Positions 849 through 63,561 of a DNA stretch of 64,000 nt are shown here, one piece after another. Both the position numbers and the translations under genes were made by a program. Every line of letters begins with the position of its first letter. Position 1 is the first letter of the stretch. Origin of the DNA: a virus; the IMG/VR virus record IMGVR_UViG_3300013014_000024, positions 1 to 64,000 of that record. One strand, written 5' to 3'. Below the pieces are notes generated by a model. That model was not told the origin of the DNA. It saw only the letters and a list, made by a program, of their open reading frames with translations, and did not search any database.

Positions 849-1190
849 ATGAAAAAATTGACTGAACAAGATATGAACCGATTGGTTAAAAAAATCCTCA
901 AAGAAGATGAGGATATTAATATGGAAGTTCTCAGAAAATCGGTGGAAGATTATAAGCAAAGGAGTGGTCAGTCAATGTCCAAAAAAACAGGGGAACCATT
1001 AAGAACTAACGAAGTTCCTTTTCACGGTTATTATAATATTAAGGATACTGACCTACCACTTAATGTAAGGTCTTTTTTTAATGACTTCAAAAAAAAATTG
1101 GGGGTTTTTAATATAAAACCATCCAAAATAAGGAAAGAAAAAATTCTTGAGGTAATTGACCAAATTTTAACATTAAACGGTTTTGAATAA
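849..1190 (+). CDS. LTE-leader protein, hypothetical
   Basis: MKKLTEQDMNRLVKKILKE; GTATTTAT upstream. Confidence 0.8.
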   Translation: MKKLTEQDMNRLVKKILKEDEDINMEVLRKSVEDYKQRSGQSMSKKTGEPLRTNEVPFHGYYNIKDTDLPLNVRSFFNDFKKKLGVFNIKPSKIRKEKILEVIDQILTLNGFE

Positions 1191-1207
1191 TATTGTATTT
1201 ATTTGTT

Positions 1208-1504
1208 ATGGAAAAAGGAATTCAGAAATTGTTAAGAAAATTGGTATTGAAAAAATATCCTATGTATTTGGATGTTCAAGTTGTTGCAGGAATTACTGGT
1301 CACCCCTACGCCCATTTGAGGGCTTGTTCTGAAGTATTCCTTATTACTTTTGACCAAGAGTATAAAGAAGATATACATGTTGAAGTTAAAAATTATATTA
1401 ATAATCTTGGAAAATATATGGATGAGAGAATATGTGGAGTTTGGAGAGAAGTTGTTACTGAGGAAGAATGGGAAGAAATGAAATCAGATGAAACCCCTCC
1501 ATAG
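1208..1504 (+). CDS. hypothetical protein
   Basis: ORF with GTATTTAT upstream. Confidence 0.7.
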   Translation: MEKGIQKLLRKLVLKKYPMYLDVQVVAGITGHPYAHLRACSEVFLITFDQEYKEDIHVEVKNYINNLGKYMDERICGVWREVVTEEEWEEMKSDETPP

Positions 1505-1527
1505 TGAGGGGTTTCATCTGATTTCAT
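1478..1527. terminator. 22-bp perfect inverted repeat / terminator
   Basis: ATGAAATCAGATGAAACCCCTC-CATAGT-GAGGGGTTTCATCTGATTTCAT. Confidence 0.7.
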
Positions 1528-1549
1528 ATAATATTTTTATATTTGTAAT

Positions 1550-1744
1550 ATGCACCCGAATAAAAAAGATAGTGTTTTTGATATGTACGAACATAAAAAG
1601 ATTATGTTAGAGTATTGTATTAATGCGGAAGAATTTAAAAAGACCATGAACGAGTTTTCTACTGTAATGGCTCGTGCTGATATGGGTGGAAGTGAGGGTA
1701 TTCATAAACCGACCTCCGGTAACCCCGACCGACTTCGTCGGTAG
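1550..1744 (+). CDS. hypothetical protein
   Basis: ORF directly after TATATTTG promoter. Confidence 0.6.
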   Translation: MHPNKKDSVFDMYEHKKIMLEYCINAEEFKKTMNEFSTVMARADMGGSEGIHKPTSGNPDRLRR

Positions 1745-1817
1745 TCAATCCCCCCGCCCCCTTTTTTCTGAAGAAAATTTTTAGATTTTTTTTGTATTTA
1801 TTGTAAATAAAAAAATT

Positions 1818-2363
1818 ATGAGAAAGATAGTAAGACTAACAGAATCAGATTTGATTCGTATAATTAAAAAAATATTAAAAGAAGACTGTGAAGATGGGAG
1901 TTGTGTACCTTCAAACCCAGAAGGTGGAGATTGGGATGATATGTTTAAAAAAAGTAAGGAATCCTACCAAGAATATCTAAGAAAAAATGATGAACTTGAT
2001 GGTGAGTTATTTGATGAGTTGTATGACGACATATCAAAAGGTACATTTTTTTCTTTTGAAAATTATGATAGGTGGACTAATGAAATTGGTGAAGGATTAA
2101 TCGATAATGAGGCAAAAATAGTTAAAACATTTCCAACAATTGATACCATATCTAGTTGGAGGGATTGGGTTAATTCTAAATGGTTTAAAACCACACATTT
2201 ATCCTTTTCAAAAAAGGCAACAAAAAACCCAATCATGATATATGTTGGAGGAAAAGAAAATGGGGGTTATGTCGAACATCCGGAAGCTTCAATTGTATTT
2301 AAAAAATCAATGTTTGATAAATATATTAATACATTTGGACCCTTGATTGTTAAGAAAAAATAA
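1818..2363 (+). CDS. LTE-leader protein, hypothetical
   Basis: MRKIVRLTESDLIRIIKKILKE. Confidence 0.85.
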   Translation: MRKIVRLTESDLIRIIKKILKEDCEDGSCVPSNPEGGDWDDMFKKSKESYQEYLRKNDELDGELFDELYDDISKGTFFSFENYDRWTNEIGEGLIDNEAKIVKTFPTIDTISSWRDWVNSKWFKTTHLSFSKKATKNPIMIYVGGKENGGYVEHPEASIVFKKSMFDKYINTFGPLIVKKK

Positions 2364-2736: not shown

Positions 2737-3738
2737 ATGAAGATTATTATCAGTGAAAATCAATACAATTTAATTTTGGAAAGCAAGGAATTGGTTTCCT
2801 CTTTTGATAAATCAATTTCTAATTTGGCTAAAGCAAATTATTTTGGTTCAAATTTTTTTAATCTCGGAACTGAAGGTAGACCTTGGTGGGCATTTCTTGT
2901 GTTTGATAAACAAAATAGAAAAAAAATATTGAAATCAATAAATGATTGGAAAATTAATAATGATGTTGATATTAGTATATCTGATGAAAATTCATTAAGA
3001 AATAATAACCATAGGCATGGTATTTCCTTGTATAATGATATTAAAAACACTCCATCGGTGAGAGAGATGATAAGTTCTTCTCAATTGCAGAATCCCGATT
3101 CAATTGCGGTTTTCATTAGTCCAAAGAAAGAAATTGTTGATACCACAGGAAAAGTTTTTTATCATACTTCAAACACTCCTGATTTAGATAAAATTGGACT
3201 TAAACCATTTTCTCCCAATATGAAATATACAAAAAATATATATTTTTGGGATGATATTGCAACCGCTAGATTCTATGGTGCAAACAACGCAATTGATTAC
3301 TTTTATATATATAAAGTTAATTTGGATGGATATGATGTTTTTAAAGATACTGAAGAATCATATGACGCTTATTTTATTAATTTACCAGTAAGTCCCAATC
3401 GAGTTGAATTAGTTGAATCCCACAACAAATTTGATGAAAAAAAGGTAAATGCGTATGAAAAGAAAAACAAAGAAATAGAAGAAAAAATTAAAAGATTTGG
3501 TATAAAGTCTTCAAAAATTTTACCTTATATTAAATACGTAAAAAAAGGATTTGATATGTGTGATAGTTTTGATAATGGAGACGAGTATGGGGAATATATC
3601 ATTAATTCTGCTTTAGAAATTTTATTTAAAGAAATATCCGAAGATTTATCTTCTGATTTTGGTTTTAAGGTTCAAGATTTATGTGGTGAATGGTTTTTTC
3701 ATAAGTTAGTTATGGAGTTTGAAGATGAATGTTTTTAA
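2737..3738 (+). CDS. ISE-leader protein with possible ADP-ribosyltransferase-fold domain
   Basis: MKIIISENQ leader; FYHTS..IGLKP..IYF..IYKV pattern. Confidence 0.55.
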   Translation: MKIIISENQYNLILESKELVSSFDKSISNLAKANYFGSNFFNLGTEGRPWWAFLVFDKQNRKKILKSINDWKINNDVDISISDENSLRNNNHRHGISLYNDIKNTPSVREMISSSQLQNPDSIAVFISPKKEIVDTTGKVFYHTSNTPDLDKIGLKPFSPNMKYTKNIYFWDDIATARFYGANNAIDYFYIYKVNLDGYDVFKDTEESYDAYFINLPVSPNRVELVESHNKFDEKKVNAYEKKNKEIEEKIKRFGIKSSKILPYIKYVKKGFDMCDSFDNGDEYGEYIINSALEILFKEISEDLSSDFGFKVQDLCGEWFFHKLVMEFEDECF

Positions 3739-4547: not shown

Positions 4548-4877
4548 ATGAAATATGTTATTACAGAATCTCGTATTGATGAATTGGTTCAAAAATATAT
4601 AACCAATTATGTTGGTCCGTTGGAAAAACATACATCTCCCTCATTTGGTCAAACATATATTTGGTATACCAACTTAAATGGTGGTATGGTATTTGAAATT
4701 AGTGATAGTCTTTATCATGGTGTTGGATTGGGAGTTTTTGAACCTATGTGGAATACAGTTAAGGGGGTGTTTTCATTGTCTGATAATGATACAGATAAGT
4801 CATTTATGGTATGGATGTCAAATTATCTCGGAAAAAAAGAATATATTGAAGGAGTTTATACCTTTGAGAAAGATTAA
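4548..4877 (+). CDS. ITE-leader protein
   Basis: MKYVITESR; GTATTTAT upstream. Confidence 0.8.
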   Translation: MKYVITESRIDELVQKYITNYVGPLEKHTSPSFGQTYIWYTNLNGGMVFEISDSLYHGVGLGVFEPMWNTVKGVFSLSDNDTDKSFMVWMSNYLGKKEYIEGVYTFEKD

Positions 4878-4883
4878 ATTAAT

Positions 4884-5189
4884 ATGAAATACCTTATTAC
4901 AGAAGACCAATATGATAGACTAGTTCAATCTCCTAATAAGCTTTGGATATTAAGAAGATATGATTTGGTTAAGAAAACATCTATTGAAGTCTTGAAGTAT
5001 GTTAATCCTTGTAAGTTTAATAATTTTGATGATTATGAATCTGTTTTTTATAATCATTTAATGGACGATATTCATGAAGAATATTATCTGATTGATGATT
5101 TTGATTATGCTGGAGTCGTAAAAGAATTGGAGGAGCTATTTTATGTTGATGTCACTGAAAAATACTACGATGGTAGAAGAAGATGTTGA
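4884..5189 (+). CDS. ITE-leader protein
   Basis: MKYLITEDQ. Confidence 0.8.
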   Translation: MKYLITEDQYDRLVQSPNKLWILRRYDLVKKTSIEVLKYVNPCKFNNFDDYESVFYNHLMDDIHEEYYLIDDFDYAGVVKELEELFYVDVTEKYYDGRRRC

Positions 5190-5233: not shown

Positions 5234-6127
5234 ATGGGTAAAATAGTAAGGTTAACAGAATCTGATTTAGCTAAAATTATAAGTAGAATACTTAAGGAGT
5301 CAGACCCAAAAGTAGGAACTGGGAAAAAACCAAAGGATTCCGACCGAAGATTGTATACTGATGAAAACCCTAAGGATACTGTTACGGTAAAGTTCAGAAC
5401 CAAACAAGATATTATTGATACCTTGAGTAAAGATAGTTTCAAATCCAAATCACACGCCAGACAATCTCAAATTATTAATTTAATTCATCAAAGACTTAGA
5501 GTCGCTTTAGAAATAGCAAAAGACCCTGAGGTTAAAGATAGACTTAGAACCGCATTTGAATACATCAAAACTCGTAAAGAAAATTCCAAAAAGAAAACTG
5601 AGGAAATGAAAGAGGGTGAAATCACTGAAAAGTGCTGGAAAGGTTATACTCAAAAGGGAATGAAGACAATGTTTGGCAAAAAATATCCAAACTGTGTAAA
5701 AAAAGAATCTGTTGGAGAAACCGATGAGGCATCAAGTCCTGCACAACAAGCAGCAATTGCAATCAATATGAAGAAGAAGGGTATAAAACCCAAAAATGAA
5801 ACTTTATATGAAGATGACTATGGTTCAGTTGAAGAAACCAACTTTGTTGTTGGTGACTTATTGACTGAAGCGGAATATCAAGGTAGAAAAGTTCAACTTG
5901 GTAAAGTTATGCAAGGAGATGTGAAGAAGTCTAAGGTATATGTTAAAAACGATAAGGGTAAGGTTGTAAAAGTTAATTTTGGTTTTGGTGGAAGCTCTGC
6001 TCACGGTAAGAGAATGACAATCAAAAAAAATAATCCTGAACGTAGAAAATCGTTTAGAGCAAGACATAATTGCGATAATCCTGGACCAAGATGGAAACCA
6101 AGATATTGGTCTTGCAGAGCGTGGTGA
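5234..6127 (+). CDS. LTE-leader multi-module protein with basic C-terminal domain (DUF6321-like)
   Basis: MGKIVRLTESDL; CWKGY module; RRKSFRARHNC..YWSC..W. Confidence 0.75.
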   Translation: MGKIVRLTESDLAKIISRILKESDPKVGTGKKPKDSDRRLYTDENPKDTVTVKFRTKQDIIDTLSKDSFKSKSHARQSQIINLIHQRLRVALEIAKDPEVKDRLRTAFEYIKTRKENSKKKTEEMKEGEITEKCWKGYTQKGMKTMFGKKYPNCVKKESVGETDEASSPAQQAAIAINMKKKGIKPKNETLYEDDYGSVEETNFVVGDLLTEAEYQGRKVQLGKVMQGDVKKSKVYVKNDKGKVVKVNFGFGGSSAHGKRMTIKKNNPERRKSFRARHNCDNPGPRWKPRYWSCRAW

Positions 6128-6223: not shown

Positions 6224-6862
6224 ATGAAGCACTTATTAAATAACATGACGGAATCTGAAAAGAATGCAATCCGTGAACAACATACAGGTGGAATGAAAGT
6301 ATCTATAGATAATTTCTCAAAACTAGTTGAATCAAAACTTGGTAATGTAAAACCATTGGTTAATGAACAAGGATGGATGAAAACCATTAAAAATTTGGTA
6401 TCACCTGAATTAAAAACATTAAGTAAAAGTAAAGGTATGAATCATATTAACGCACCTGAATATATTAAAAACCTTATGTCAAAATATAGCTCTGTTAAAA
6501 TGACAGATTATGTTAGGTCATTGTTAAAACCTGTTCAGGATGAGGTTGCGGTTATAATGAATGATATTAAAAGAATGAAGCAATTTAAAAATCCTGTAAA
6601 GGCCGGAGAATATGACTATGTTGATTTTCTTATAGGTAATGCCTCTCAAATACCTAAAAAATTAAATGTTGCACCGGGACAACCGATTTATTTAGACTAT
6701 ATATATCAAGAAATAAGTGAGTTAAAAACTTATTTTGATGAAATCAAGGAAAAAAATCTATTAACCCAACAAGGATTGGTTATTTTAAATGATATGAGTA
6801 AAAATATTGATGATGCTATAGAAAACATACACACCGCACTCAGTAAAATGGCTGTAAAATAA
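6224..6862 (+). CDS. leader-bearing hypothetical protein
   Basis: MKHLLNNMTESEKNAIREQH. Confidence 0.8.
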   Translation: MKHLLNNMTESEKNAIREQHTGGMKVSIDNFSKLVESKLGNVKPLVNEQGWMKTIKNLVSPELKTLSKSKGMNHINAPEYIKNLMSKYSSVKMTDYVRSLLKPVQDEVAVIMNDIKRMKQFKNPVKAGEYDYVDFLIGNASQIPKKLNVAPGQPIYLDYIYQEISELKTYFDEIKEKNLLTQQGLVILNDMSKNIDDAIENIHTALSKMAVK

Positions 6863-6870: not shown

Positions 6871-7653
6871 ATGAAAATAATAATTACAGAAACTCAATAT
6901 AAACTTTTAATGGGTGAACAATTGCAAATTGCTCAACCTAGTAACCCTTCGGATTATTTGGGGAAAGGAAGACAATTTGAAAAAACAAATAAAATCCAAG
7001 ACCCATTAAGAATACCTTTAAATAAAGGGTCAAATCTAAACGAAATAATGGAAAGTTTCAGAGAAAAACTATTTTCACCCGCAGGAGTGGCGATTGAGGT
7101 TTTTTTAACATCGTTAGGTTGGACTGCACCCGCAGTTATGACAGCATATGGAGCTCTATTATCATTTGACATTTATAAAGCTGTAATTGGAGAAACAGAC
7201 TGGTTTAATATTGTTGTTGATGTTATCGGCATTGTAACTTCTGGTGCATTTTCAGGACTATTCGCGCCACTTATGAGAGGAGCGAAAAAAAGATTCAATT
7301 CAATATCCGAAGTCTTTAAATGGTTAAAAACAAATAAAATTTGGGCATCATTAAAACCATATTTATCAAAAATTATATCTGAATTATCGAATGTTGGTAA
7401 ATGGTTGTCAACAGGAATAAAATGGATTGCAGATAACACTGGATTAACTTTTCTTTTAAAATGGTCTTCTAAGATTTTAAGTTTTTTTAATAATATTTCA
7501 AAAGAAATTTTAAATTCTATAAGTGAAGTAACTTCAGAAGTTGTGGGTTCAATTATAAATAATAATAAAGTGGCTCAATCTGCAGGAACTGCCTCAAAAG
7601 CAGGAACTATTCAGTTGGCGCTTAATAAAGGTTCAAGTTATTTGGAAAAGTAA
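6871..7653 (+). CDS. ITE-leader protein with hydrophobic/amphipathic helices
   Basis: MKIIITETQ; Gly/Ala-rich hydrophobic segments. Confidence 0.8.
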   Translation: MKIIITETQYKLLMGEQLQIAQPSNPSDYLGKGRQFEKTNKIQDPLRIPLNKGSNLNEIMESFREKLFSPAGVAIEVFLTSLGWTAPAVMTAYGALLSFDIYKAVIGETDWFNIVVDVIGIVTSGAFSGLFAPLMRGAKKRFNSISEVFKWLKTNKIWASLKPYLSKIISELSNVGKWLSTGIKWIADNTGLTFLLKWSSKILSFFNNISKEILNSISEVTSEVVGSIINNNKVAQSAGTASKAGTIQLALNKGSSYLEK

Positions 7654-8484: not shown

Positions 8485-9009
8485 ATGAAATATATCATAA
8501 CAGAAGACCAGTTAGAAAAAGTAAAAGATAAAATTCTTAAATTATCATTTGATTTATTTGATAATAATTGGGATGATTTACAAGTTTTTTTAAAAAGAAA
8601 AGGTAATCCACCTTATATTCTTATTGGTACAGTTGAGTTAACTGATAGAAGAGATGTTGAAACTCTCGGTTCAGTTGTTGAAATATGGGGTAATCTAAGA
8701 GCCAATCACACTTCACTTCGTTCTTTGGGGAACCTAACAAAAGTTAGTGGTAATGTGAGTTTTTTTAAATCACCTATCCAATCTCTTGGAAATCTAACAT
8801 ATGTTTTTGGTAAAGTTGGTTTAAATTTAGCAGGTACAGATATCAAATCTCTTGGAAACTTAACCTTTGTTGCCGATGATTTAAATTTGAAAGGGACCCC
8901 ATTCTCAAGAGCCGCCAATCTCAATACAAGACAAGATATCTTAAATAAAGTTTTTGTTGGCGGAACAGTATTTTTGGACATGGAGGCGTTCAGAGGTTCT
9001 ATGAAATAA
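8485..9009 (+). CDS. ITE-leader protein with LRR-like repeats
   Basis: MKYIITEDQ; repeated SLGNLT.V.G.L. Confidence 0.8.
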   Translation: MKYIITEDQLEKVKDKILKLSFDLFDNNWDDLQVFLKRKGNPPYILIGTVELTDRRDVETLGSVVEIWGNLRANHTSLRSLGNLTKVSGNVSFFKSPIQSLGNLTYVFGKVGLNLAGTDIKSLGNLTFVADDLNLKGTPFSRAANLNTRQDILNKVFVGGTVFLDMEAFRGSMK

Positions 9010-9101: not shown

Positions 9102-9980
9102 ATGGCGAAAATACTCACACTACAAGAATCTCAACTAATTAATATGGTAAAAACTATTGTTGAACAAGTTAATCAGGATTTGAGCAAATATGATGATAAT
9201 GATTTTACCGATTTATTTATTTTCTTATTTAGAAATTGGCTTGGAGATAAATTGGGTGAAGAAGTTAAGAAATATCCTTTTTCTTTTTTGTTAAAAAAGT
9301 TTGGTCAAGAGTTTTTGATACAAACTTTTGGTGATAAATATAGGAGATATTTTGGTGAAGTAGATGTTAATTTTAATAGATTTAGAATACCACATTATGG
9401 AAAATACTTGGCAGAAATTGGTGCATATACTCTTCCATCATTAAGAAGCGAAGAAAAGTTTACCGAACAATACAAAAGACATATTCCACGTTTAATTAAA
9501 CAATTGGAAATACCTAGTTGGGTTAGAGTTGAACTTAAAGAAGATGAACCATATGAGGTTGAAGTAAATTTGTATGTTGATTATCCTTCTTATTTAAAAA
9601 AGGACCCATCCTCCTTAAATTTAGACCAATATGGATTACAAAAAAAGTTAATACAGCTTTTTGAAGATTATTTGGGTATAGAATATGGTAACGTTGCTCA
9701 TGGAAAACTTAATCTTAGTCTTGATATATTATCTGAAAATGAAGAAGCTTGGATTAAAAACGTTTTAAACAAAGAAATCAAAAAACACATTAAGGCAATG
9801 CCTGACGGTAAGTATGTTCATTCAATCAGATTTGAACCAAAAGTTACTGGTAACTCTAATATGAAAATAATATATAAAGAAAACGCACACAGAGAAACTC
9901 ATTTATATGCGTTTAGAAATAAAGTTAGGGAATACCTTAAAGAGTTGGGATACACTAAAATAAATGTTGAGAACGCTTAA
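9102..9980 (+). CDS. leader-bearing hypothetical protein
   Basis: MAKILTLQESQLINMVKTIVE. Confidence 0.8.
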   Translation: MAKILTLQESQLINMVKTIVEQVNQDLSKYDDNDFTDLFIFLFRNWLGDKLGEEVKKYPFSFLLKKFGQEFLIQTFGDKYRRYFGEVDVNFNRFRIPHYGKYLAEIGAYTLPSLRSEEKFTEQYKRHIPRLIKQLEIPSWVRVELKEDEPYEVEVNLYVDYPSYLKKDPSSLNLDQYGLQKKLIQLFEDYLGIEYGNVAHGKLNLSLDILSENEEAWIKNVLNKEIKKHIKAMPDGKYVHSIRFEPKVTGNSNMKIIYKENAHRETHLYAFRNKVREYLKELGYTKINVENA

Positions 9981-9982: not shown

Positions 9983-10330
9983 ATGAAATACATTATATCA
10001 GAATCTCAGGTTAAAAACTTAATAAAAAAATATTTTAAGAAGGACCTTTCTAATAACATAGAAATGATAACTGATTACTGGGATTTACCTATTGAATTTA
10101 GACACATGATGAGTAAAAATGCTGGAAATCATTTTCTTAATATGTTTGGACCTATGTTTTTGATTAAAGCCGGTGGTAAAGAATATTTGGCTCAAGATAG
10201 GATTGAAAAATGGTTAATTGCGGACACGAGTGACGCTGAAATTAGTGAGGAAAAATTAATGAATCTTCTTGGAATTGATACATTAGGTTTATCCATGCAA
10301 GAACTTATTGATGCTTACATTGACGAGTAA
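9983..10330 (+). CDS. ISE-leader protein
   Basis: MKYIISESQ. Confidence 0.8.
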   Translation: MKYIISESQVKNLIKKYFKKDLSNNIEMITDYWDLPIEFRHMMSKNAGNHFLNMFGPMFLIKAGGKEYLAQDRIEKWLIADTSDAEISEEKLMNLLGIDTLGLSMQELIDAYIDE

Positions 10331-10357: not shown

Positions 10358-10639
10358 ATGAGATATATTATATCCGAATCTAGATTGAGTACCATAATGG
10401 TTAAATTTCTTGATGACTACCTTTCAAAATATGAAGTCATAGAGGCAAAGGACATCCTCAGTTGGGGTACAGGTCAGGACAATCAAATGGTATATGATAA
10501 GGATAATGAATTACTGTTTGTTCGTGAATCTTTATATCAATTAATAAGAGATGTTTTTGGTGTGGAACATCACGACTACGTTGAATTCATTAAATCTTAT
10601 ATGGCCAATATGGGATATTTTGTTAAAAGAATTGTTTAA
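10358..10639 (+). CDS. ISE-leader protein
   Basis: MRYIISESR. Confidence 0.8.
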   Translation: MRYIISESRLSTIMVKFLDDYLSKYEVIEAKDILSWGTGQDNQMVYDKDNELLFVRESLYQLIRDVFGVEHHDYVEFIKSYMANMGYFVKRIV

Positions 10640-10640: not shown

Positions 10641-10928
10641 ATGGAATACACAATATCAGAAGAACGATTAACAAAATTGATTATGAAAATAATTAAACCC
10701 ATGGAAATTGAGGGTCTTTACAGAGTACAAATTAATTTTACAAAAAAATCAACTGACCACATTGTTGTTGCCCTTTTCTTTGATATTGTTAGGGACTCTG
10801 GTTTTTTCAAAAAAATAGATAATGATGTTACTAATAGACTTGAGGATTTATTGGGTATAGACCCATTAGTAGTAACAATTCCTTATAGTGAAGATAAATA
10901 CCATTTAAATGAACCTAGAAATATATAG
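10641..10928 (+). CDS. ISE-leader protein
   Basis: MEYTISEERL. Confidence 0.75.
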   Translation: MEYTISEERLTKLIMKIIKPMEIEGLYRVQINFTKKSTDHIVVALFFDIVRDSGFFKKIDNDVTNRLEDLLGIDPLVVTIPYSEDKYHLNEPRNI

Positions 10929-13461: not shown

Positions 13462-14643
13462 TTATTTTACTTTGAATTTAATTTCTGTTGTTAAGTTCTT
13501 ATCTGTGTTATTAACTTTGTGGTATAAATCCCAATCTTTAATTGATTTGTTTTCTGATTTTGTCATGTCATAAAGTTTTGATATTTTTTTAATCATGTTA
13601 TTTGCAACAAATTTAAATAATTTTTCTTCATTTTTAAAAAAATATTTAGTATTATTAAATTTTTGTATTTTTCTGAGAAATTTTTGAAAGTGTTCTCCCT
13701 TTTTACCCTGCAAACCAAGCATTTTTTCTATAATGTTTGAAGTCATTAGGTTAACATAAGACTGAGCTTTATTATTAATTAAGTTAACATAAACTATTCT
13801 TAATATCTCATCTATTTTTTCTTCATCATTTGAACCCATATTATGGTTCATTTTTTTTCCGATTTTATCTATGTTAGGAATAAAGTCCTTTAATTCCTTT
13901 CTTAGTTTTTCATATGAAAAATTTTTGGCTTCGTCTAACATTTTATATGTTTCATTATCTTTCAAGAAATTTAAAAAATTTTTTTGACTAACCTTACCTG
14001 ATTTAATTGCCATTGCAATTTCAGTTGGTCTAACCACATTTTCTGTCGCATGTGTAAAATATAAAAAATGTAAAAATTTATCTATTGGTTCAATTCCAAA
14101 AGATATACTTTGTGCAGCTTGATATGTTGCTCTTTCAGATGCGTCATCATATCCGGATTTATGAGAATCATACGCATGCATTAATTCATGAGATAGAGAA
14201 TTAAGAATATCCAATTTATCTTTCTTAATTAGATTAACCAATTCTTCAAATTTCCAATTCTGTGGAACTAAAAATTTAAATTTAATTATAAATTCATCAA
14301 ATGAAGTAACAATTGTTAACTTTTCACTATCATTATAAGAAGTACTTTCAAATGGAGTTGCAAATCCCAATATCACGTAATCTTTTTTGGAGGTGTTATT
14401 CCACTTATTTATTTCAAAATAAACTTTTACAGAATCTATATCCAAATCACTTATCTTGTAATTTACATTAAAATCAAATTCATATTCTTTTTCATTTTCG
14501 TCAAAAGTATTTTGGTCTAATTCTCTAATTATATCATCATATAACTTTTCGGCCGTTTCCAATATTCCTTCAGGAACTCCTAATCTTTCTAGTAAAACTT
14601 TTTTAATAGATAATCTTAATTCTGATTCTTTTAATATTTTCAT
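13462..14643 (-). CDS. leader-bearing HExxH metallopeptidase-like protein
   Basis: MKILKESELR..VLLE; SHELMHAYD. Confidence 0.7.
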   Translation of the reverse strand: MKILKESELRLSIKKVLLERLGVPEGILETAEKLYDDIIRELDQNTFDENEKEYEFDFNVNYKISDLDIDSVKVYFEINKWNNTSKKDYVILGFATPFESTSYNDSEKLTIVTSFDEFIIKFKFLVPQNWKFEELVNLIKKDKLDILNSLSHELMHAYDSHKSGYDDASERATYQAAQSISFGIEPIDKFLHFLYFTHATENVVRPTEIAMAIKSGKVSQKNFLNFLKDNETYKMLDEAKNFSYEKLRKELKDFIPNIDKIGKKMNHNMGSNDEEKIDEILRIVYVNLINNKAQSYVNLMTSNIIEKMLGLQGKKGEHFQKFLRKIQKFNNTKYFFKNEEKLFKFVANNMIKKISKLYDMTKSENKSIKDWDLYHKVNNTDKNLTTEIKFKVK

Positions 14644-15315: not shown

Positions 15316-15819
15316 ATGAACAGGAGATTTATATTAACAGAAGAAGAAAAAACAAGTATTAGAAATCAATATTTTTTTGAACAATCAGAATCATCTAAAA
15401 AAGAAGAAAGGTTATTCTGTCACAAAGGAAATACAAAGAGTTTAGACGAAATTGTTGGTGGAGATGATGTAGAGGATTATATTGAAGGTGTACAACTTAG
15501 AAAGTCGGGAATTAACGCACTTACAGACGTTCTTGAGCTATTAAAAACAGCAAGATTACATCCTAAAATTACTGATGGTGGTGAAGATTTGGCGTTTAAA
15601 CTTGTTAACAATCTTAAATCATATAAGCCTTACAATTATTTTGACGAAACAAAGAAAGAATGTAATAAATCAATGGATAAAATTATTGAACTTTACAAAG
15701 AAAACAAACACGGTGAAGAACTTGTTAAAGATATTGAAAAAGTTTTTGAAATGGACCACGTATCAAACAGAGCCAAAGAATATATCAAACACGGCTTGGC
15801 AATGATTAAAGGCCAGTAA
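15316..15819 (+). CDS. LTE-leader protein
   Basis: MNRRFILTEEEK. Confidence 0.8.
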   Translation: MNRRFILTEEEKTSIRNQYFFEQSESSKKEERLFCHKGNTKSLDEIVGGDDVEDYIEGVQLRKSGINALTDVLELLKTARLHPKITDGGEDLAFKLVNNLKSYKPYNYFDETKKECNKSMDKIIELYKENKHGEELVKDIEKVFEMDHVSNRAKEYIKHGLAMIKGQ

Positions 15820-16510: not shown

Positions 16511-17554
16511 ATGAAGAAAGTAATAAAACTGACTGAGGAAGATTTAAAAAAAATTGTTAAAAAAGTTTTGAATGAGCAATCTAAGTTTCTCATACCCACA
16601 TATTCACCTTTAAACCCAAATGCAAATAAAGAAAATATTAACCCAAAAAACTTGAAACTAGGTGACGGAGGAAGAAATAATCCAAAACAAATTAATGATG
16701 TAAAAGAATTACAGTCAAAATTATTTAAATTAGGATTTTTAAAAACTAAATCGATGACCCCAACAGGGTATTTTGGTACTCTAACAAAAGCAGCATTAAA
16801 AAGATACGAAAGTAAGAATTCACTAAAAGTTGAACCTAAACAAGAAAAATATACATGTGTTGGAATTTCAAAAGAAGAATGTTCAAAAATAAATTCTAAA
16901 CAAGACACAATAATTAGCACTGGTGACGATAAAAGGTGTGCTGCGTATATGATAAAATGTTTATCAACATACAATGAAGAATTGGTTAAGCGTAAATCAA
17001 ATGCATGGTTTGCTTTTCAAAATATGAAAGCTAAAGGTGTTGAAAAATACAACATGTTTGGAACTGATGATATTAAATGGAATGAAATTTATACCAATTT
17101 AGTTAAAAACAAAGTAAGTCCTCAGATATGTGATTGTTATAAAGATGACCACATGGATGGAAAATGCAAAGGAAATATTCCTCAAATAGTTACAAATAGT
17201 TATCCACAAAGAACTTCATTTAATTATAAAAATTTACAGCTTGGAGATATTGTAGGGATGTATTATAATGCATCAACAAATAAAGGGCAAGCATTCTGTC
17301 AGAGAATTAAATTACAAGGTTTACAGAACGACGGTAATGTGAAAGTGAAAGGTAAATTCACTTTTAACACTCATGTTGGGTTTGTCACAGCAATTAAGGA
17401 TGGTATGCCGATAATATTACACAACATTGGCAACGAAACCCAAGGTTTACATCATGCAACCCCGGCTAATAAATTATTAAGTAAAAATGATGCTATGATA
17501 GTTTGGGTTGTGTCTGATAATGAAGTGTCAAAAAATATTAACTCTACTAAATGA
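16511..17554 (+). CDS. LTE-leader protein with peptidoglycan-binding and CHAP/NlpC-like domain
   Basis: VKELQ..L...G.FG..T..AL; CAAY...GDIV...HVGFV. Confidence 0.7.
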   Translation: MKKVIKLTEEDLKKIVKKVLNEQSKFLIPTYSPLNPNANKENINPKNLKLGDGGRNNPKQINDVKELQSKLFKLGFLKTKSMTPTGYFGTLTKAALKRYESKNSLKVEPKQEKYTCVGISKEECSKINSKQDTIISTGDDKRCAAYMIKCLSTYNEELVKRKSNAWFAFQNMKAKGVEKYNMFGTDDIKWNEIYTNLVKNKVSPQICDCYKDDHMDGKCKGNIPQIVTNSYPQRTSFNYKNLQLGDIVGMYYNASTNKGQAFCQRIKLQGLQNDGNVKVKGKFTFNTHVGFVTAIKDGMPIILHNIGNETQGLHHATPANKLLSKNDAMIVWVVSDNEVSKNINSTK

Positions 17555-18555
17555 AAAGAATTATAAAGTTAACAGAGGAGGATTTAGGTGAAATAATTAA
17601 AAGAATTTTATCTGAACAACCTGACGAAAAAATGCCAGGACATATAGAAAGATTTGGGTACAAGTCCAATAACCCAAAAAGTATTGGCCCTGCAATCGAA
17701 GCTCAAGATAAATACTTTAAAGAAATAAATACTGGTGTTAATAATTTCATTAAAAGTTTTGGTATTATAAGTTGCGTACCATATACAATGGTTCCACTAG
17801 TTGTTTATGTGATGATAAATAAAAAATACATAATTTCAAAATTAGGAATTACTGAAAAAGAATTAATAATGTTTTTAAAAGCATCTATTGGAATTATCGG
17901 TAGGGAATCTAATTTTACCAAATTTATTAGTTTTAGTAAAGGTCAGTTTGAAATCACCCCAAGGTATTTTAAAAAAAATGTGTACAATTTTTTAAACAGA
18001 TATGAATGGGCAAGAAAACACAAGTTGGGTGGTAGAACAGGTAGTTATGGTCCGGCACAAATACGTTTATCAACATGGAATAATCTTAATATGGAAAAAT
18101 TGTTCAACATAAATGGAGACCAAATATATACTGTAATTGGCGCCGGAATGGGGGCAATAGTTAATCTAGTAAATAATTATAAATTAGCAAAAACGGTAGG
18201 ATATTCATCATCAAAAGCAACAAACACTCCTGGAACAGGTAACGGGGCGTTAGATATTTCAATAGCCGCACATAATATCGGAAAACCAATTAAATGGTGT
18301 AAAACAAATGATAAAAATTATGCAGCACCATGTAATGCAAAAGACCATAAATATTTACCATACCCTAAGAAACAACCAAATTTAATTTTAACGGTATTAC
18401 CTCAAGAAATACCAAACTATATTCCGAACAAAATGACTGAAAAGTATAAAGGAGAATATGAGGGAGTCCCATTAACTACTCACAATTATGTTAAAGAAGT
18501 CGCAGGGTATATGTCAAATTATGAATGTTTAAATGGTATTGAAAAAATCAATTAA
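17551..18555 (+). CDS. LTE-leader protein with lytic transglycosylase-like domain
   Basis: GRESNF...SYGPAQI...AAHNIG. Confidence 0.65.
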   Translation: MKRIIKLTEEDLGEIIKRILSEQPDEKMPGHIERFGYKSNNPKSIGPAIEAQDKYFKEINTGVNNFIKSFGIISCVPYTMVPLVVYVMINKKYIISKLGITEKELIMFLKASIGIIGRESNFTKFISFSKGQFEITPRYFKKNVYNFLNRYEWARKHKLGGRTGSYGPAQIRLSTWNNLNMEKLFNINGDQIYTVIGAGMGAIVNLVNNYKLAKTVGYSSSKATNTPGTGNGALDISIAAHNIGKPIKWCKTNDKNYAAPCNAKDHKYLPYPKKQPNLILTVLPQEIPNYIPNKMTEKYKGEYEGVPLTTHNYVKEVAGYMSNYECLNGIEKIN

Positions 18556-19676: not shown

Positions 19677-19967
19677 ATGATATTATCAGAGCAAGAAAAA
19701 GAAGATATTCGTAAGAAATATGAAGGAAATTATTCAAATGAAATTTTAATTCATTTGAGGAGGAATTACCCTGTTTATGAATTCAATATGAAATTTATGG
19801 ACTCTCCAGTCAAACAGATTTTAGTGGATGACAAATTGTATATGCTTTCTCAAAATAAGAAGTATTTGGTTAATAAAATATCTTCCGTATTAGAAGATAC
19901 ATTCACATCAGTAGAAAAACCTATCTTAAGAAGAACGGTAAAATTTTATTTAGATATGTTAAGATAA
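19677..19967 (+). CDS. LSE-leader protein
   Basis: MILSEQEKEDIRKKY. Confidence 0.75.
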   Translation: MILSEQEKEDIRKKYEGNYSNEILIHLRRNYPVYEFNMKFMDSPVKQILVDDKLYMLSQNKKYLVNKISSVLEDTFTSVEKPILRRTVKFYLDMLR

Positions 19968-44194: not shown

Positions 44195-45325
44195 ATGAAA
44201 CAATGGTCAATAGGATTAATGTCTAACGATGAAAAAAGAAACATCTTAGACCAACATAAAACTCTATACGATGGTTACAGAACCATGCAACCTCAAGTGT
44301 CAAATACACAACCACTTTATACTCAAGATTTTGCTAACGATAAAGTTGGTGTAACCGTAACTAATAAAGGCGATGTTAAGAGATACACGAATATGGGTAT
44401 TAACGAACAAGTTAAAAAAGAATCAATGTGTTCTGAGTGCGGAGGAATGGTATATGAAGGTGAATGTATGGAATGTGGTTATGGGGGTAGAGGAATGGGA
44501 GAAGAAATGGGAGAGGAGACACAACAAGTTAAAAACTTAAAAAAAGTTTATGATATAGACAAAAATAATAAGTTTGATTACGTTGAAGGTGAAATTGATG
44601 AGCTTAGCTCAAGTGAGCTTAAAAGAGGTAAAAAATATAAATATAAACACCCTGAATTTGACGATGATTTAGAATATGAAGATGAGTTTGAAGATAAACA
44701 TGGAGGTGATACCATGTATAAATTCAAATCAAAAGATAATACAACACACATGATGCCAAATAAATCTATTGAATACTTTATGGGTGATTTGGACGAAGAT
44801 GATGCTTTTGATGCAGACGCTTTACAAAATTTGACAGGTCAGGAAGCTCCACATATGTCAGATGATATGGCTCCTGATGGAATGGATGATGACAGCGATA
44901 ACGATAGAAAAATGATGGCGGATGGAGAAATGGAAGAAACATATCAAGGAAATCCTTACGATAATAGAGAAAGAGCATATACTTTCACATCCAAAGGACC
45001 AAAAGATAGTGGAGATACATATTCAATCAAAGCCGATGATATGGACTTGGATGATTCTGAAATTGAAAGACCATTTAATTTTTCATCAAATGGAGCGGTA
45101 AGAGAATTTGACCAAATGGAATCTGCCTTTGATGATGAGGATGATGATTTGGCAATTTTAGATTATAATCAAGATGAAGAAGATGATTATGATGATAATG
45201 ATTCTTGGGAAGAAATTACTTCTGACAAAGATTCATTAGACATTGATGACGATATCAGAGAAAGTGTAAATAAACAAAAAGGTCTGATTTTAGAGATGAT
45301 GAATAGAATGAAAGGAAGAAATTAA
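44195..45325 (+). CDS. highly acidic leader-bearing protein with CxxC..CxxC motif
   Basis: D/E-rich; RTATTTAT promoter. Confidence 0.8.
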   Translation: MKQWSIGLMSNDEKRNILDQHKTLYDGYRTMQPQVSNTQPLYTQDFANDKVGVTVTNKGDVKRYTNMGINEQVKKESMCSECGGMVYEGECMECGYGGRGMGEEMGEETQQVKNLKKVYDIDKNNKFDYVEGEIDELSSSELKRGKKYKYKHPEFDDDLEYEDEFEDKHGGDTMYKFKSKDNTTHMMPNKSIEYFMGDLDEDDAFDADALQNLTGQEAPHMSDDMAPDGMDDDSDNDRKMMADGEMEETYQGNPYDNRERAYTFTSKGPKDSGDTYSIKADDMDLDDSEIERPFNFSSNGAVREFDQMESAFDDEDDDLAILDYNQDEEDDYDDNDSWEEITSDKDSLDIDDDIRESVNKQKGLILEMMNRMKGRN

Positions 45326-47065: not shown

Positions 47066-48418
47066 ATGGAAAAAAAACTGATTACAGAAGTAGAAAAAAT
47101 TAAAAAAATGATGGGATTATTATTAGAAAATACAGGATTTTTTAATGGGATTACTGATGATATGGTGAAAGATATAATGTCAATATCTAAAGTAAGAGGT
47201 TTTAAATCTTGGTTTAAACAAAAGGATGTAAACCTTATGAAGGACCTTGAAAAACTTGAAGGAATTACAAGTGGTAAAATAAAATTAGATACACCGGCAG
47301 ATGTGGCCGCAAAGGACGGAATTATTAAAAGATTAATTCAAAATGAAGCTATCGCGGATTATTTGATACCAGAATTGTTAACCAAACATTTACCGACATT
47401 TAATAATATGAATTTAATCAAAGATGCAATCAAAAAAAACATTAAAAGTGGTGTAAAACCAAATGTCATTCTTAACGGAATACCAAACATAGTTCGAGTA
47501 AGATTTCCGCAAACCGATGATATAGTTAAAAAATATATCGTAAATGACCTGAAAAATTATACGGTATATATTACTGATTATATACCTGGTTCTGAATTTT
47601 TAAGTTCAAAATGGGGAAAACTTAAACAAGGTTGGTCAATTGGTAAAGACGCTAAATCAGGTGGATTAGCGGGAACAAAAAGTTTAATTGTGAGGGTACC
47701 ACCAATCAACTTTATAACAAAAGCAAGTGATAAATATTTCAAAACTTCTTTTAGAAAAAAATTGAACGAAGAAGAAGTAGAAATAGTTCGTAGATTTTTT
47801 TTGACTGGAGTTGCAGATTACCCATTATTAAGGAGGGTTTTTAAATCTTACGGTTTTGTTGGTGCAACAGGAAACTTAGCCAGACAACTTGTAAAAAAAA
47901 TAGCTTATTTAACACTTGTTAAATCGGCTTTAAATTTTTTGTACCAATCATTAGTTGATAATAAAGATAATCTTTCGGAATATGATGAAGAGAATATGCA
48001 CTGGTTTTTTGTAGTTTGTTATAGATTAGTTCATTCTATTGAATTTCCATCTTTAGGATGGGTAAGTCCGGCGGGTTGGCTTGCAGGTCTTTTAGGTTTT
48101 ACACTTAAACCCGCTGTTTATGGTAAGGGTAGAGATGCGATGTTGAAAGAATTTGAAAACTATTTGAAAGGAGGAAATGAAAAAAATTATCCTAAACTTT
48201 GGCATGGATATAAACTCAGTGATATTTATCAAGCAATTATGAATAGTATAAATTCGGAAATAGAAAAAATAGATGTAGAAATAAAACAACTTGAATCTGG
48301 TAAAAATATAGAACCACAAACTTTATCAAGACACGGAGTTAGGATAAATAATAATTCAAAACAAAAGACTAATGATGACGATGCAATAAATAATACTCCA
48401 GGTTGGAAGAAAAAATAA
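47066..48418 (+). CDS. ITE-leader large protein
   Basis: MEKKLITEVEKIKKMMGLLLE. Confidence 0.8.
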   Translation: MEKKLITEVEKIKKMMGLLLENTGFFNGITDDMVKDIMSISKVRGFKSWFKQKDVNLMKDLEKLEGITSGKIKLDTPADVAAKDGIIKRLIQNEAIADYLIPELLTKHLPTFNNMNLIKDAIKKNIKSGVKPNVILNGIPNIVRVRFPQTDDIVKKYIVNDLKNYTVYITDYIPGSEFLSSKWGKLKQGWSIGKDAKSGGLAGTKSLIVRVPPINFITKASDKYFKTSFRKKLNEEEVEIVRRFFLTGVADYPLLRRVFKSYGFVGATGNLARQLVKKIAYLTLVKSALNFLYQSLVDNKDNLSEYDEENMHWFFVVCYRLVHSIEFPSLGWVSPAGWLAGLLGFTLKPAVYGKGRDAMLKEFENYLKGGNEKNYPKLWHGYKLSDIYQAIMNSINSEIEKIDVEIKQLESGKNIEPQTLSRHGVRINNNSKQKTNDDDAINNTPGWKKK

Positions 48419-58629: not shown

Positions 58630-58634
58630 CATAT

Positions 58635-60801: not shown

Positions 60802-60924
60802 TACACGTTAAAAATAGATAATGTCTCCTAATTCCCAATCTTCTTGGGAATCTTCTTGTGGTTCCGGGTCAAGTTCTACCTTGGTTTGCAAAATCACTAA
60901 CATACTATACTAACGGATTTTATG

Positions 60925-60996
60925 AGCCCCCGCCCGGAATCGAACCGAGTTATCATGATTACAAGTCATGCGCATCGCCTGCAATGCTTAAAGGGC
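60925..60996 (-). tRNA. tRNA-Thr(UGU)
   Basis: CATGA-CTTGTAA-TCATG. Confidence 0.85.
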
Positions 60997-61005
60997 TTGT
61001 TTTTA

Positions 61006-61203
61006 TTAAGTATCTTGAAAATTTAATTTGTTCATCTCCTCGATACTTTTAAGACCATTTTTCCACTCTCTCCATATTTCAAAATCCTGAAGGTCTTGTA
61101 AGGTTTTTTCGTGTACCAAGACAAAACCTTCAGGTGCCACTCCTACAAATCTACGAACATTTCCCTCTTCTTCCAAAATTTTTTCAATATTTATTTTACT
61201 CAT
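61006..61203 (-). CDS. hypothetical protein
   Basis: ORF. Confidence 0.65.
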   Translation of the reverse strand: MSKINIEKILEEEGNVRRFVGVAPEGFVLVHEKTLQDLQDFEIWREWKNGLKSIEEMNKLNFQDT

Positions 61204-61795
61204 CTTTTTTATTTAAATATTTTAGAATAGATTCTTTAATTCCTGTTTGTTTAATCCCCTCATTATCTTTTTCGGTCAATACAAAGTTATCTAATCCCCA
61301 CTCATGTTCGAACTCCATAGAGTAATATAAACCCGTTTTACCCATGTTTAAATCATCTACAGCCACCCAATTTGTTATCTCAGGATGGTCAACTAAATAT
61401 TGTTTAATTTCAATAGACCTAGATTGTTCTAAATCCCATTGTCTTTCCCAAGGAAACACATTATTGTCATACCACTTACATTCATACGATTTAAGAGTAA
61501 ACGAAATAGGTTTTTTTATAATTCCTTGTGATTCATAGTATTCACCCATTTCTTCAAGATTACAATGAAGTTTCCAATCAGAACTAACAACAATCTCAGC
61601 TCCAGTTTCTTCTAAAATCTCATTTAAAACTTTTACCGCTTTTTTGTTAAAGTTATCAAACCTATATTCAAGTGGAATTTCTCCATTAGACATAGACAAT
61701 TTTCTACCGCCCCATTTTTTTTGTTTTTTATAACGACCACCCCATTCTGTTGATAAACAGATTACTCCGTCATGGTCTAAAAATAGAATTTTCAT
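61196..61795 (-). CDS. HAD-domain protein (Swiss-Army-Knife RNA-repair type)
   Basis: LFLDHDGV, IVVSSDW, EI..YL, WVAVDD. Confidence 0.85.
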   Translation of the reverse strand: MKILFLDHDGVICLSTEWGGRYKKQKKWGGRKLSMSNGEIPLEYRFDNFNKKAVKVLNEILEETGAEIVVSSDWKLHCNLEEMGEYYESQGIIKKPISFTLKSYECKWYDNNVFPWERQWDLEQSRSIEIKQYLVDHPEITNWVAVDDLNMGKTGLYYSMEFEHEWGLDNFVLTEKDNEGIKQTGIKESILKYLNKKDE

Positions 61796-61870
61796 AACAC
61801 AAAAGTAGATATTTATTATTAAAACACCAAAAGTCTTAGGACATAAATTTTAAACCCACACAGATGGAAG

Positions 61871-62095
61871 ATGGAGAAAAACAAGTTTACGTGGCAGAGA
61901 ACGTTTCAAGACAACCTGTCACAAATATTTCTAATGTTAGCACTATTTTTCAACCCATTCGGGTTCGATGCCGTTCAATATTCTATAATATCATGGACAG
62001 GAAGTTTATGGAAAGCCAACTTCGTTTTGTATTGTATTGCGGGATTCTTTTTTGGTCTTTATTTCTACTTTCGCAAGTTATCTAACAAACCTTAA
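61871..62095 (+). CDS. small membrane protein
   Basis: 2 TM; FFNPFGFD. Confidence 0.6.
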   Translation: MEKNKFTWQRTFQDNLSQIFLMLALFFNPFGFDAVQYSIISWTGSLWKANFVLYCIAGFFFGLYFYFRKLSNKP

Positions 62096-63561
62096 AGTGC
62101 TTTAAGTTCACCGTTTTTATATGCTTCAAAATTAGGTCCTTTCATTAAAAAAAATTGGTTTCCTATTTTTCTATATTTCAAAATGCCAGCATTTTTTGCT
62201 GATGCAAAAAAGGATGAAAAATGACCTCTCCATTTTGAGGATTGATGCCAATTATTCATACCTTGTTGGGAGTACCAAACTGAACCATTCTCTGAAACCT
62301 TTCCTTCAAGTTTACCAATCTCAACAAGAAAATCTAACTTTGTTCCAATTTTTCCTTCATCTAACCAATCAACTAACTTTTTAATCAAACCTTTATTTTT
62401 TTCAAAAGTATATCCGTAATGGAGTCTATCAGGTGTCCATACGGGTGTCTTATGAATATGTTGTAAAAGAATTGAATTATTTTCTAAGATTCGTCTAACA
62501 GAATTTAAGATGTAAGTTGCTATTGTAGAACTAATATTAGTTGTGTGATGTACAATAACATTAAAACTACCCCCAAAACCATCAAAACCTAAATCAACTT
62601 TAAATTCTGAACCAACGTCACCAAAGTTATAATTAATCTCTAAACCGTATGACGAATCTCTTTTTCTTAAATTAGCACTAATAATAATTAAATATTCATC
62701 CAACAAACCTTGTTGTTTTTCTTTTCTTTCATATATCTTCAAACCAGAATGAACTATGAAGGTGTTTTCATAATGGTCCATAAGTTCAAATCCGTTTATT
62801 GTTGTCGTTATTATAACATCAGAAATTATAATACTTTCAGTAAAAACATCGTTTGTTGTAAGTGATTGTTTTATTTTATCGACTGTTTCATCTGGATGAG
62901 CATCATCGTGATATTCTTTAATGGTTTTCCACATTTCAGAATATGCATTTTTAAAAAATACTTTTTCTCTACTACTTAAAGTGCTATCGGCAGCATCGTA
63001 GAATGTTTCCTCACCTTGATTACTAATGTGAATTGCAATTTTATATAGATTTTCATCCATATCTTTTTTTGAAATTACATAGTAAAGACCTTGATTACCT
63101 GAAGTATACCTGTTAAAGTAATCATCGTTATTTTTATTTGTTGTACACCATCTTGTTTTTGAACCGTATTTACAAGATGCCGCAAAGTTTTGAGGTTCAA
63201 CAACAACAAATTTATCATCTTCGTATATTTTTTTTGATTTTGGTTTCTCTTTGTTTCTAGTGTATTCACTAATTCTTGAAATCAAATCAAAAAATCCTGT
63301 ATAATCATTTATGTCTTTTTTTTCTAAATTGTTTTGTACTTTATCAAACTTTTGTAATGCCTCAATTACCTCTTCAAGTTCTCTAAATGAATAATTAGAA
63401 TTTAAATTTTTTAAAATAAAATCGGCGTATTTGTAGTTAGTTTGCTTAATGAATTGGTCCGCAAAAACGTTACTAAGACCCTCATCTGAGAATTTTGATT
63501 CGTATTTTTTCATGAGGTCTTCTTTTCTTCCCTCCCTTAATAAAATGGTCATGAATTTCAT
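62092..63561 (-). CDS. large protein with short leader and YG..T.WCTT domain
   Basis: MKFMTILLRE; ASCKYGSKTRWCTT. Confidence 0.8.
   Translation of the reverse strand: MKFMTILLREGRKEDLMKKYESKFSDEGLSNVFADQFIKQTNYKYADFILKNLNSNYSFRELEEVIEALQKFDKVQNNLEKKDINDYTGFFDLISRISEYTRNKEKPKSKKIYEDDKFVVVEPQNFAASCKYGSKTRWCTTNKNNDDYFNRYTSGNQGLYYVISKKDMDENLYKIAIHISNQGEETFYDAADSTLSSREKVFFKNAYSEMWKTIKEYHDDAHPDETVDKIKQSLTTNDVFTESIIISDVIITTTINGFELMDHYENTFIVHSGLKIYERKEKQQGLLDEYLIIISANLRKRDSSYGLEINYNFGDVGSEFKVDLGFDGFGGSFNVIVHHTTNISSTIATYILNSVRRILENNSILLQHIHKTPVWTPDRLHYGYTFEKNKGLIKKLVDWLDEGKIGTKLDFLVEIGKLEGKVSENGSVWYSQQGMNNWHQSSKWRGHFSSFFASAKNAGILKYRKIGNQFFLMKGPNFEAYKNGELKAL

Follow-up and report, generated by a model that had tools for sequence, protein, structure and literature searches.

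The DNA analyzed here, referred to as the window, comprises positions 1 to 64,000 of IMG/VR virus record IMGVR_UViG_3300013014_000024, which is 97,694 bases long. The completeness of this record is 32% as estimated by CheckV, which implies a genome of ~300 kb, i.e., that of a jumbo phage, and the G+C content is ~30%. Many genes in the window encode proteins with unrelated bodies that begin with short, similar leader peptides, which are candidate signals for loading proteins into the phage head. A preliminary description of this DNA had regarded them as a single shared tag; shared leaders do exist, but they are of three related kinds rather than one, designated here classes A, B, and C. The class A leader, M-[KR]-[KR]-I-[VI]-[KR]-L-T-E-[SE]-D-L-x-x-I-[IV]-K-[KR]-[IV]-[IL]-x-E (typically MKKIVRLTESDLxRIVKRVIxE), is 22 residues long. 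The class B leader follows the pattern M-K-[IY]-I-I-[TS]-E-x-Q, and the class C leader follows ...[LI]-[TS]-E-x-E-K-x-x-I-x-x-x-[HY] (typically MKKFLITEEEKxRILGMH and, in relatives, MKKFLITEEEKSRILGMH). The tripeptide [IL]-[TS]-E, located within the first ~nine residues, is common to all three classes.

Hidden Markov model (HMM) profiles of the three classes, trained solely on sequences of other phages, were searched against the 144 open reading frames (ORFs) of the contig, with an E value of <0.01 taken as a match. This leader scan of the genome and its relatives, which the preliminary description had put forward as a check, recovered 16 genes in the window (Table 1), and the leader was found in other phages as well; the gene at 9102 was borderline (E = 0.025). 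The N-termini quoted in that description are present where it had placed them, and most of its 27 listed genes do carry a leader. The genes at 22783, 46199, 58739, and 63561(-) received no support from the external profile search of the 144 ORFs, and those at 14643(-) and 47066 are weak. Four to five of the listed genes are without the tag, and the class C gene at 44195 was absent from the list. A variant of class B, termed B' (^M[KREN]Y[ILVT]I[TS]E), is fitted by six genes (4548, 9983, 10358, 10641, 35791(-), and 4884, the last of which is also a class B HMM match) and occurs 15 times in relatives. For a broader class B expression, ~0.004 chance matches are expected in the 144 ORFs by a rough estimate, versus 12 found in the contig. 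Beyond the window, the genes at contig 64420(-) and 92928(-) are also tagged, and the gene at contig 92930-93673(-) contains an internal class A copy at residues 119 to 146.

A scan of IMG/VR with a degenerate DNA pattern covering class A codons 1 to 12 detected at least 147 ORFs on at least 118 stretches. In the 137 unique class A leaders on other contigs among the matches listed, residues 13 to 22, which are not fixed by the pattern, are 80 to 94% conserved, Glu22 is present in 129 of the 137 as part of [IVL]20-x-E22, and conservation collapses at residue 23. L7-T8-E9 is invariant, this segment lying inside the 12 codons of the pattern. The class B scan of IMG/VR yielded at least 108 unique proteins, of which 103 have [LI]13 and 52 have Glu15, the pattern being ITE followed by [LI]13-x-E15. 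When a profile built from 97 leaders was run against 1.84 billion cluster representatives, 10,018 proteins matched at an E value of ≤1e-3 and 1,009 at ≤1e-10; in 138 of the 150 best, the leader match begins no later than residue 15. The 138 full-length class A proteins, with a median length of 145 residues, fall into 104 unrelated body clusters, 82 of which are singletons. The tag is real, modular, and very widespread. Nearly all leader-bearing fragments imply genomes of ~300 kb according to their CheckV completeness, and complete genomes encode 7 to 15 class A ORFs each, one of them (G015) also having 16 class B ORFs. DNA and protein searches with an 8-kb stretch and one tagged protein gave no match among 50,697 deposited phage genomes, and a full-text literature search with leader peptide motifs returned no relevant paper.

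Conservation of the leader is at the protein level. Codons vary at its invariant residues, with TTA, CTT, CTA, and TTG used for Leu7, TCN and AGT for Ser10, and AGA, CGA, CGT, and AGG for Arg18, and this free synonymous variation indicates that selection acts on the peptide. A DNA-level explanation, such as a translation signal or a repeat, is ruled out by the codon variation. Related to it is the idea that promoter-plus-leader cassettes form a recombination device for swapping accessory genes, with little or no role for the peptide. The tagged genes do cluster in variable regions, their bodies are freely exchanged, and a promoter-like motif is adjacent; Repoila et al. are said to have suggested a similar recombination role in 1994 for the conserved ends of the T-even ip genes. 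We nevertheless regard such a device as very improbable, because the nucleotide sequence is unconserved, with synonymous changes at almost all positions of an invariant peptide, and because the internal in-frame copies retain the peptide too. Recombination may add to the function of the peptide but not replace it.

The bodies behind the leaders had been described as unrelated, and an all-against-all BLAST comparison agreed, a few related pairs excepted. Family assignments were supported for two bodies, PG_binding_1 (16511) and SLT-like (17551). Twenty tagged proteins remained almost entirely without annotation after Pfam and PHROG scans, and the HExxH, ART, PD-(D/E)XK, LRR, and ferritin labels were therefore dropped as unverified. 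The body of 17551 resembles SLT lytic transglycosylases (atlas feature score of 0.94, 24 of 30 matches being SLT, and structural TM of 0.59 to 0.70), and that of 6871 reached scores only near 0.8 in the atlas search, which is chance level. By their family matches, the cargos 16511 and 17551 are predicted to bind or cut peptidoglycan, as the internal ejected proteins of other phages likewise do. Such enzymes must reach the periplasm somehow, and the leader could on that ground be an export or localization signal for the membrane, the periplasm, or a phage compartment rather than the capsid. Ejection from the capsid would equally deliver these enzymes to the wall, however, and the leader is charged and amphipathic and has no hydrophobic core, unlike the Sec and lipoprotein signals on other genes of the same phage. 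The preliminary description had stated that the metabolic genes lack the tag; the untagged genes include those for thymidylate synthase, RNA ligase, ClpP, and the GH19 endolysin, the last of which lies in a separate lysis block. We therefore hold a signal of this kind to be highly improbable. In the family of the gene at 20887, which comprises 88 relatives at an E value of ≤1e-3, most members retain both the leader and the body, and the alignment shows these two parts to be conserved and the linker to be variable in length. An AlphaFold2 model of this protein (43 sequences) predicts a free leader helix at low confidence, a disordered acidic linker (residues 39 to 61), and a separate folded body with a pLDDT of 84 to 92.

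The sequence RTATTTAT had been reported before most tagged genes. Counted within 50 nucleotides upstream of the start codons, TATTTAT precedes 18 of the 27 tagged genes versus 28 of the 117 others (Fisher p = 5e-5), which upholds the enrichment, although the motif also stands before untagged genes. Its distance from the start codon in these 18 genes is 11 to 25 nucleotides, and the other tagged genes lie downstream of another gene in a TATTTAT-led unit. The motif is shared with the structural genes, being located upstream of the protease gene, the scaffold-like gene, and several others in the structural block. It is found upstream of 85 of the 137 class A genes on other contigs among the matches listed, with the same two spacings, and it may represent a late promoter.

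A T4-type head module sits elsewhere on the contig, beyond the window, where a Pfam scan located Portal_T4, Peptidase_S77, a Gp23 capsid protein, and a T4-type large terminase together (Table 1). The S77 protease shares 31% identity with T4 gp21 (BLASTP, E = 4e-21), and its His and Ser align with gp21 H85 and S140, which we take to be the catalytic residues. An S77 protease gene is present in 18 of the 34 leader-bearing records; of the six records with a completeness of 90% or more, five have it. The leader is linked to one phage clade with this protease. The scaffold-like gene contains long acidic repeats of the DSDMEDD type, and the class A leader has a net charge of approximately +3, which together suggest that the scaffold-like protein is an electrostatic partner of the leader. 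Genes for ClpP (49715-50395(-); PF00574, E = 1e-56) and for a ClpA/B-like AAA+ ATPase with two rings (contig 70414-72426(-)) also lie on this contig, and the leader could accordingly be imagined as a degron at the N-terminus, or as a tag recognized by an unfoldase and protease of the Clp type, allowing timed turnover of a set of late proteins. Phage ClpP, however, occurs in only three of five near-complete relatives and is missing from two that have 15 and 11 class A leaders, whereas S77 occurs in all five. In addition, a degron predicts neither coregulation with head genes nor the avoidance of L-x-E in the bodies that is described below, and we give this possibility very little credence.

T4 gp21 cleaves after L/I-x-E (PMC9026906), and two indirect lines of evidence bear on whether the protease of this clade has kept that specificity, namely the capsid protein site and the composition of the cargo bodies. 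In an alignment of capsid protein N-termini (arrows mark the T4 cut and the positions aligned with it), T4 FLTE65↓AEIGG lies opposite LINE↓A(S/T) in the phage studied here and five relatives and opposite LIYE↓A in a sixth, 412-kb relative. As I-N-E↓A is aligned to T4 L-T-E65↓A, the homologous maturation site still fits the L/I-x-E rule. The leader boundary at [IVL]-x-E and the [IL]-T/S-E found in all classes also appear to fit the (L/I)-x-E motif of such a protease. The leader-free bodies of 168 class A proteins were compared with 1,637 other ORFs from the same loci by the ratio of observed to composition-expected (O/E) numbers of each a-x-b pair. L-x-E was the single depletion outlier of 282 testable pairs, with an O/E of 0.68 versus 1.19 (z = -5.3, the next lowest being -2.7) and a bootstrap interval of 0.53 to 0.86 when one protein per body cluster was used. 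The control motifs E-x-[LI] and [LI]-x-D/K/N/Q gave O/E values of 1.1 to 1.3, and size-matched and acidity-matched ORFs gave 1.11 to 1.13. Clustered acidic linkers were considered as a source of spurious L-x-E depletion, and the reversed motif, the Asp version, the acidity-matched ORFs, and the omission of the first 45 or 60 residues argue against them. Avoidance of L-x-E is what would be expected of proteins that survive in a prohead full of a gp21-type protease, and we know of no other reason for it.

The leader could instead be a permanent docking or functional helix that is kept, uncleaved, on the mature proteins and serves in oligomerization, in binding to a partner such as a host or phage hub, or in the tail or baseplate. 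Such a helix would account for the 22 conserved residues, compared with 10 in the T4 capsid-targeting sequence (CTS), for the internal and repeated leader copies, and for the one conserved tagged gene in an operon outside the head module, and AlphaFold2 does predict an amphipathic helix. It leaves unexplained why conservation stops exactly at [IVL]-x-E, why [IL]-T/S-E recurs in all three classes, and why L-x-E alone is depleted in the bodies, and the N-terminal bias of the leader (138 of the best 150 matches) suits a propeptide better. We consider it unlikely that the leader is a helix of this type.

The leaders are in our assessment probably capsid-loading propeptides of the T4 CTS type, in an enlarged form with multiple classes. 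The preliminary description had likewise proposed a modular tag that resembles the T4 CTS and is removed after (L/I)-x-E; this part of it is favored by the S77 protease, the capsid site, the leader boundary, the L-x-E depletion, and the shared TATTTAT, whereas the effector identities that it assigned are mostly unverified. In the mechanism that we propose, the tagged genes would be transcribed together with the structural genes from TATTTAT-type promoters. The N-terminal strand and amphipathic helix of the net basic, 22-residue class A leader would dock the cargo to the very acidic scaffolding core during prohead building, and the S77 prohead protease would cut after [IL]-T-E (residues 7 to 9) and/or [IVL]-x-E (residues 20 to 22). 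This cut would free the mature cargo inside the head, to be released together with the DNA when the next cell is infected. Classes B and C may be shorter relatives of the same signal.

Several observations weigh against a cleaved loading signal. The L-x-E depletion is moderate and weakens to 0.86 versus 1.14 beyond residue 45 or 60, that of class B is weak (0.92, interval of 0.75 to 1.09), I-x-E alone is not significant, and the short motif [LI]-x-E is frequent in sequences of this composition. The conservation of 22 residues goes beyond the known need of a cleavage and targeting signal, the T4 CTS having 10 residues and not being obviously helical. Internal leaders and proteins with two or three leaders, every one of which begins with KK-I-V-R-L-T-E (e.g., P0001-P0029, P0046, and P0075), are not required of a pure N-terminal signal; these proteins may be fused neighbor genes or polyproteins meant for splitting. 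One leader-bearing genome that is 93% complete has no S77 match. By tblastn, the leader is absent from 50,697 deposited phage records, so that, judged by these sequences, no characterized phage among them carries it, and the phage has no cultured relative. Finally, the tagged gene at contig 92464-92928(-) (body ..YMFFSNLEQIKRQ.., a Cys-rich C-terminus, and phrog_27331), which is conserved across relatives (L005, L042, L076, and L082), lies in an operon outside the head module, directly after two conserved ~500-residue genes. Its leader is reduced to the second half in G015, and a PHROG scan assigned no structural names to the surrounding genes, the ~500-residue genes being without a family match.

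Other features of the contig concern its host and gene content. A TAnnTTTG-like upstream motif (e.g., ttatctttgtaat), presumably the housekeeping promoter form of Bacteroidota, is located directly before several untagged genes and may mark early genes, unlike the TATTTAT before tagged and structural genes. The closest cultured capsid protein is that of Flavobacterium phage immuto (42% identity), whose genome has an annotated prohead serine protease and lacks the class A leader. Based on these motifs and this capsid protein match, the host is likely a member of the Bacteroidota. The untagged genes at 3845-4252 and 7725-8429, which lie amid tagged genes and have a TAnnTTTG-type motif, are paralogues with 59% identity over 132 residues. 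Another paralogous pair, 27545-28159(-) and 30224-30535(+), is 73% identical over 97 residues and flanks the gene at 28666-29781 in opposite orientations. The class C gene at 19677 weakly resembles the N-terminal part of the 489-residue gene at 62092-63561(-) (25% over 93 residues, E = 4e-6), which is in turn related to 31714-32781(-) and contig 68108-69472. ARAGORN predicted 14 tRNA genes (window 54867-58711, plus 33069, 60924, and 63604), 11 of which are in one block, and the mechanically called ORFs at 55100-55261, 55695-56087, and 57604-57735 are consequently probably not genes.

Table 1. Leader-bearing genes of the window, head genes of the contig, and TAnnTTTG-like sites (window coordinates unless marked contig; TATTTAT positions are relative to the start codon)
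Feature	Position (strand)	N-terminus or content	Evidence
Class A without first strand	849..1190 (+)	MKKLTEQDMNRLVKKILKE	HMM E=9e-8; profile A1 E=5.5e-8
Class A	1818..2363 (+)	MRKIVRLTESDLIRIIKKILKE; leader is first 22 codons, 1818-1883	HMM E=6e-13; TATTTAT at -23
Class A	5234..6127 (+)	MGKIVRLTESDLAKIISRILKE	HMM E=2e-13; TATTTAT at -23
Class A	16511..17554 (+)	PG_binding_1 body	HMM E=7e-13; Pfam PF01471 E=1.5e-8
Class A	17551..18555 (+)	SLT lytic transglycosylase-like body	HMM E=1e-12
Class A	20887..21339 (+)	Leader helix, acidic disordered linker, folded ~85-residue body	HMM E=1e-16
Class A	31355..31672 (+)	MKKIVKLTESELVQIIKKIINE	HMM E=6e-12; TATTTAT at -22
Divergent A-like, borderline	9102..9980 (+)	MAKILTLQESQLINMVKTIVEQ	HMM E=0.025; TATTTAT at -11
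Possible degenerate A-like, weak	13462..14643 (-)	MKILKESELRLSIKKVLLE	Sequence inspection; HMM not significant
Class B	2737..3738 (+)	MKIIISENQYNLILE	HMM E=5e-7
Class B	4884..5189 (+)	MKYLITEDQYDRL	HMM E=1e-5
Class B	6871..7653 (+)	MKIIITETQYKLLMGE	HMM E=9e-10
Class B	8485..9009 (+)	MKYIITEDQLEKV; true start is internal ATG at 8485	HMM E=0.003; TATTTAT at -12 of 8485
Class B	21415..22548 (+)	MKIIITESQYLTLLIEE	HMM E=1.5e-8; TATTTAT at -12
Class B'	4548..4877 (+)	MKYVITESRIDE	Regular expression; TATTTAT at -12
Class B'	9983..10330 (+)	MKYIISESQVKNLI	Regular expression
Class B'	10358..10639 (+)	MRYIISESRLSTIM	Regular expression; TATTTAT at -12
Class B', weak	10641..10928 (+)	MEYTISEERLTKLI	Regular expression only
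Class B'	35171..35791 (-)	MNYLITEEQLRIIIKEE	Regular expression; TATTTAT at -12
Class C	6224..6862 (+)	..NMTESEKNAIREQH	HMM E=1e-9; orthologues in relatives' loci L028 and L032
Class C	15316..15819 (+)	MNRRFILTEEEKTSIRNQY	HMM E=5e-9
Class C	19677..19967 (+)	MILSEQEKEDIRKKY	HMM E=0.001
Class C	44195..45325 (+)	..LMSNDEKRNILDQH	HMM E=2e-5; TATTTAT at -21
Possible C-like, weak	47066..48418 (+)	MEKKLITEVEKIKKMM	Sequence inspection; HMM E=0.23
Large terminase, T4-type	contig 80623-82341		PF03237
Portal, Portal_T4	contig 82385-84223		PF07230 E=4e-74
Prohead protease, Peptidase_S77	contig 85707-86423		PF03420 E=1.5e-21, above cut-off
Scaffold-like gene	contig 86752-88266	504 residues, extremely D/E-rich	Between protease and capsid protein genes
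Gp23-type capsid protein	contig 88301-90094		PF07068 E=7e-73
TAnnTTTG-like site	3800-3845		
TAnnTTTG-like site	7680-7725		
TAnnTTTG-like site	22530-22568		
TAnnTTTG-like site	43781-43820 (-)		
TAnnTTTG-like site	61795-61830 (-)		

The closest known system is the CTS of T4, a short N-terminal leader with [LI]-x-Glu at its end that is carried by unrelated nonessential late proteins (IPI, IPII, IPIII, and the Alt propeptide) and removed by gp21. The two systems have in common a gp21-family (S77) protease, a gp20 portal, a gp23 capsid protein, an acidic scaffold, and cargo genes in variable regions. The sequence of the T4 CTS is MKTYQEFIAE, to which the leaders described here (MKKIVRLTESDL.., MKIIITExQY.., and MKKFLITEEEK..) are unrelated, only M-K and the terminal [LI]-x-E being in common. 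They also differ in the 22 residues, two candidate sites, and predicted helix of class A, in the existence of three classes, and in the multicopy and internal forms. Approximately 25 genes are tagged in one-third of the genome and ~35 in a complete relative, versus 3 to 4 in T4 and at least 10 Ip types across related T-even phages. Moreover, the host is probably a member of the Bacteroidota, and the system is known here from sequence alone. In T4, a segment of ten N-terminal residues is sufficient to direct IPIII into the head (PMC9026906), and the leader is the sole shared part of the T-even Ip proteins (PMC12373910).

Other systems share single aspects with these leaders. Many head-internal proteins are likewise a feature of the jumbo phages phiKZ, 201phi2-1, and SPN3US; a protease related to gp21 cleaves them behind Glu residues, and each propeptide offers several redundant sites (PMC9026906). 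However, their sites are of the S/A-x-E type and their propeptides are long and family specific, with no portable, near-identical leader, whereas the unbiased scan of residue pairs performed here points to L-x-E. The SLT-type wall-cutting domain of the 17551 body has a counterpart in T7 gp16, a capsid-internal core protein with an ejected lytic transglycosylase domain, but gp16 itself is a large structural component of the core that has no leader to remove, and no S77 protease is involved. Encapsulins likewise load unrelated proteins into an HK97-fold shell by means of a short portable peptide; this peptide, however, is usually C-terminal, binds the shell protein itself, and is retained rather than cleaved off by a protease, and encapsulins are not viruses.

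The principle of loading proteins into the head by a removable leader is already known from T4, and its enlarged form with three leader classes is the new part. If the leaders are capsid-loading propeptides, they would constitute a second, independent sequence solution to capsid loading, comparable with the T4 CTS of phage engineering. The L-x-E avoidance test offers a cheap way to seek protease-exposed cargo in other phages. A bolder and quite tentative extension, which we think possible but doubtful, is a clade-wide cargo code in which approximately one-tenth of the genes of ~300-kb phages, and more than 10,000 public protein clusters, are addressed to the prohead by at least three interchangeable leaders; the classes might set copy number or position, and the multileader proteins would be polyproteins split by the head protease. 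Such a code would mean an injected proteome far larger than that known for any phage, readable from sequence, and a catalog of thousands of candidate anti-defense and host takeover proteins acting in the first minutes of infection. Phage proteins that enter with the DNA act before any phage gene expression, and those of T4 specifically inhibit the restriction systems of the host (PMC12373910). A 22-residue portable tag on ~10,000 unrelated protein clusters would thus point to a very large pool of candidate anti-defense and entry factors, and the proteins that accompany the DNA would become recognizable by their sequences in a large group of uncultured jumbo phages.

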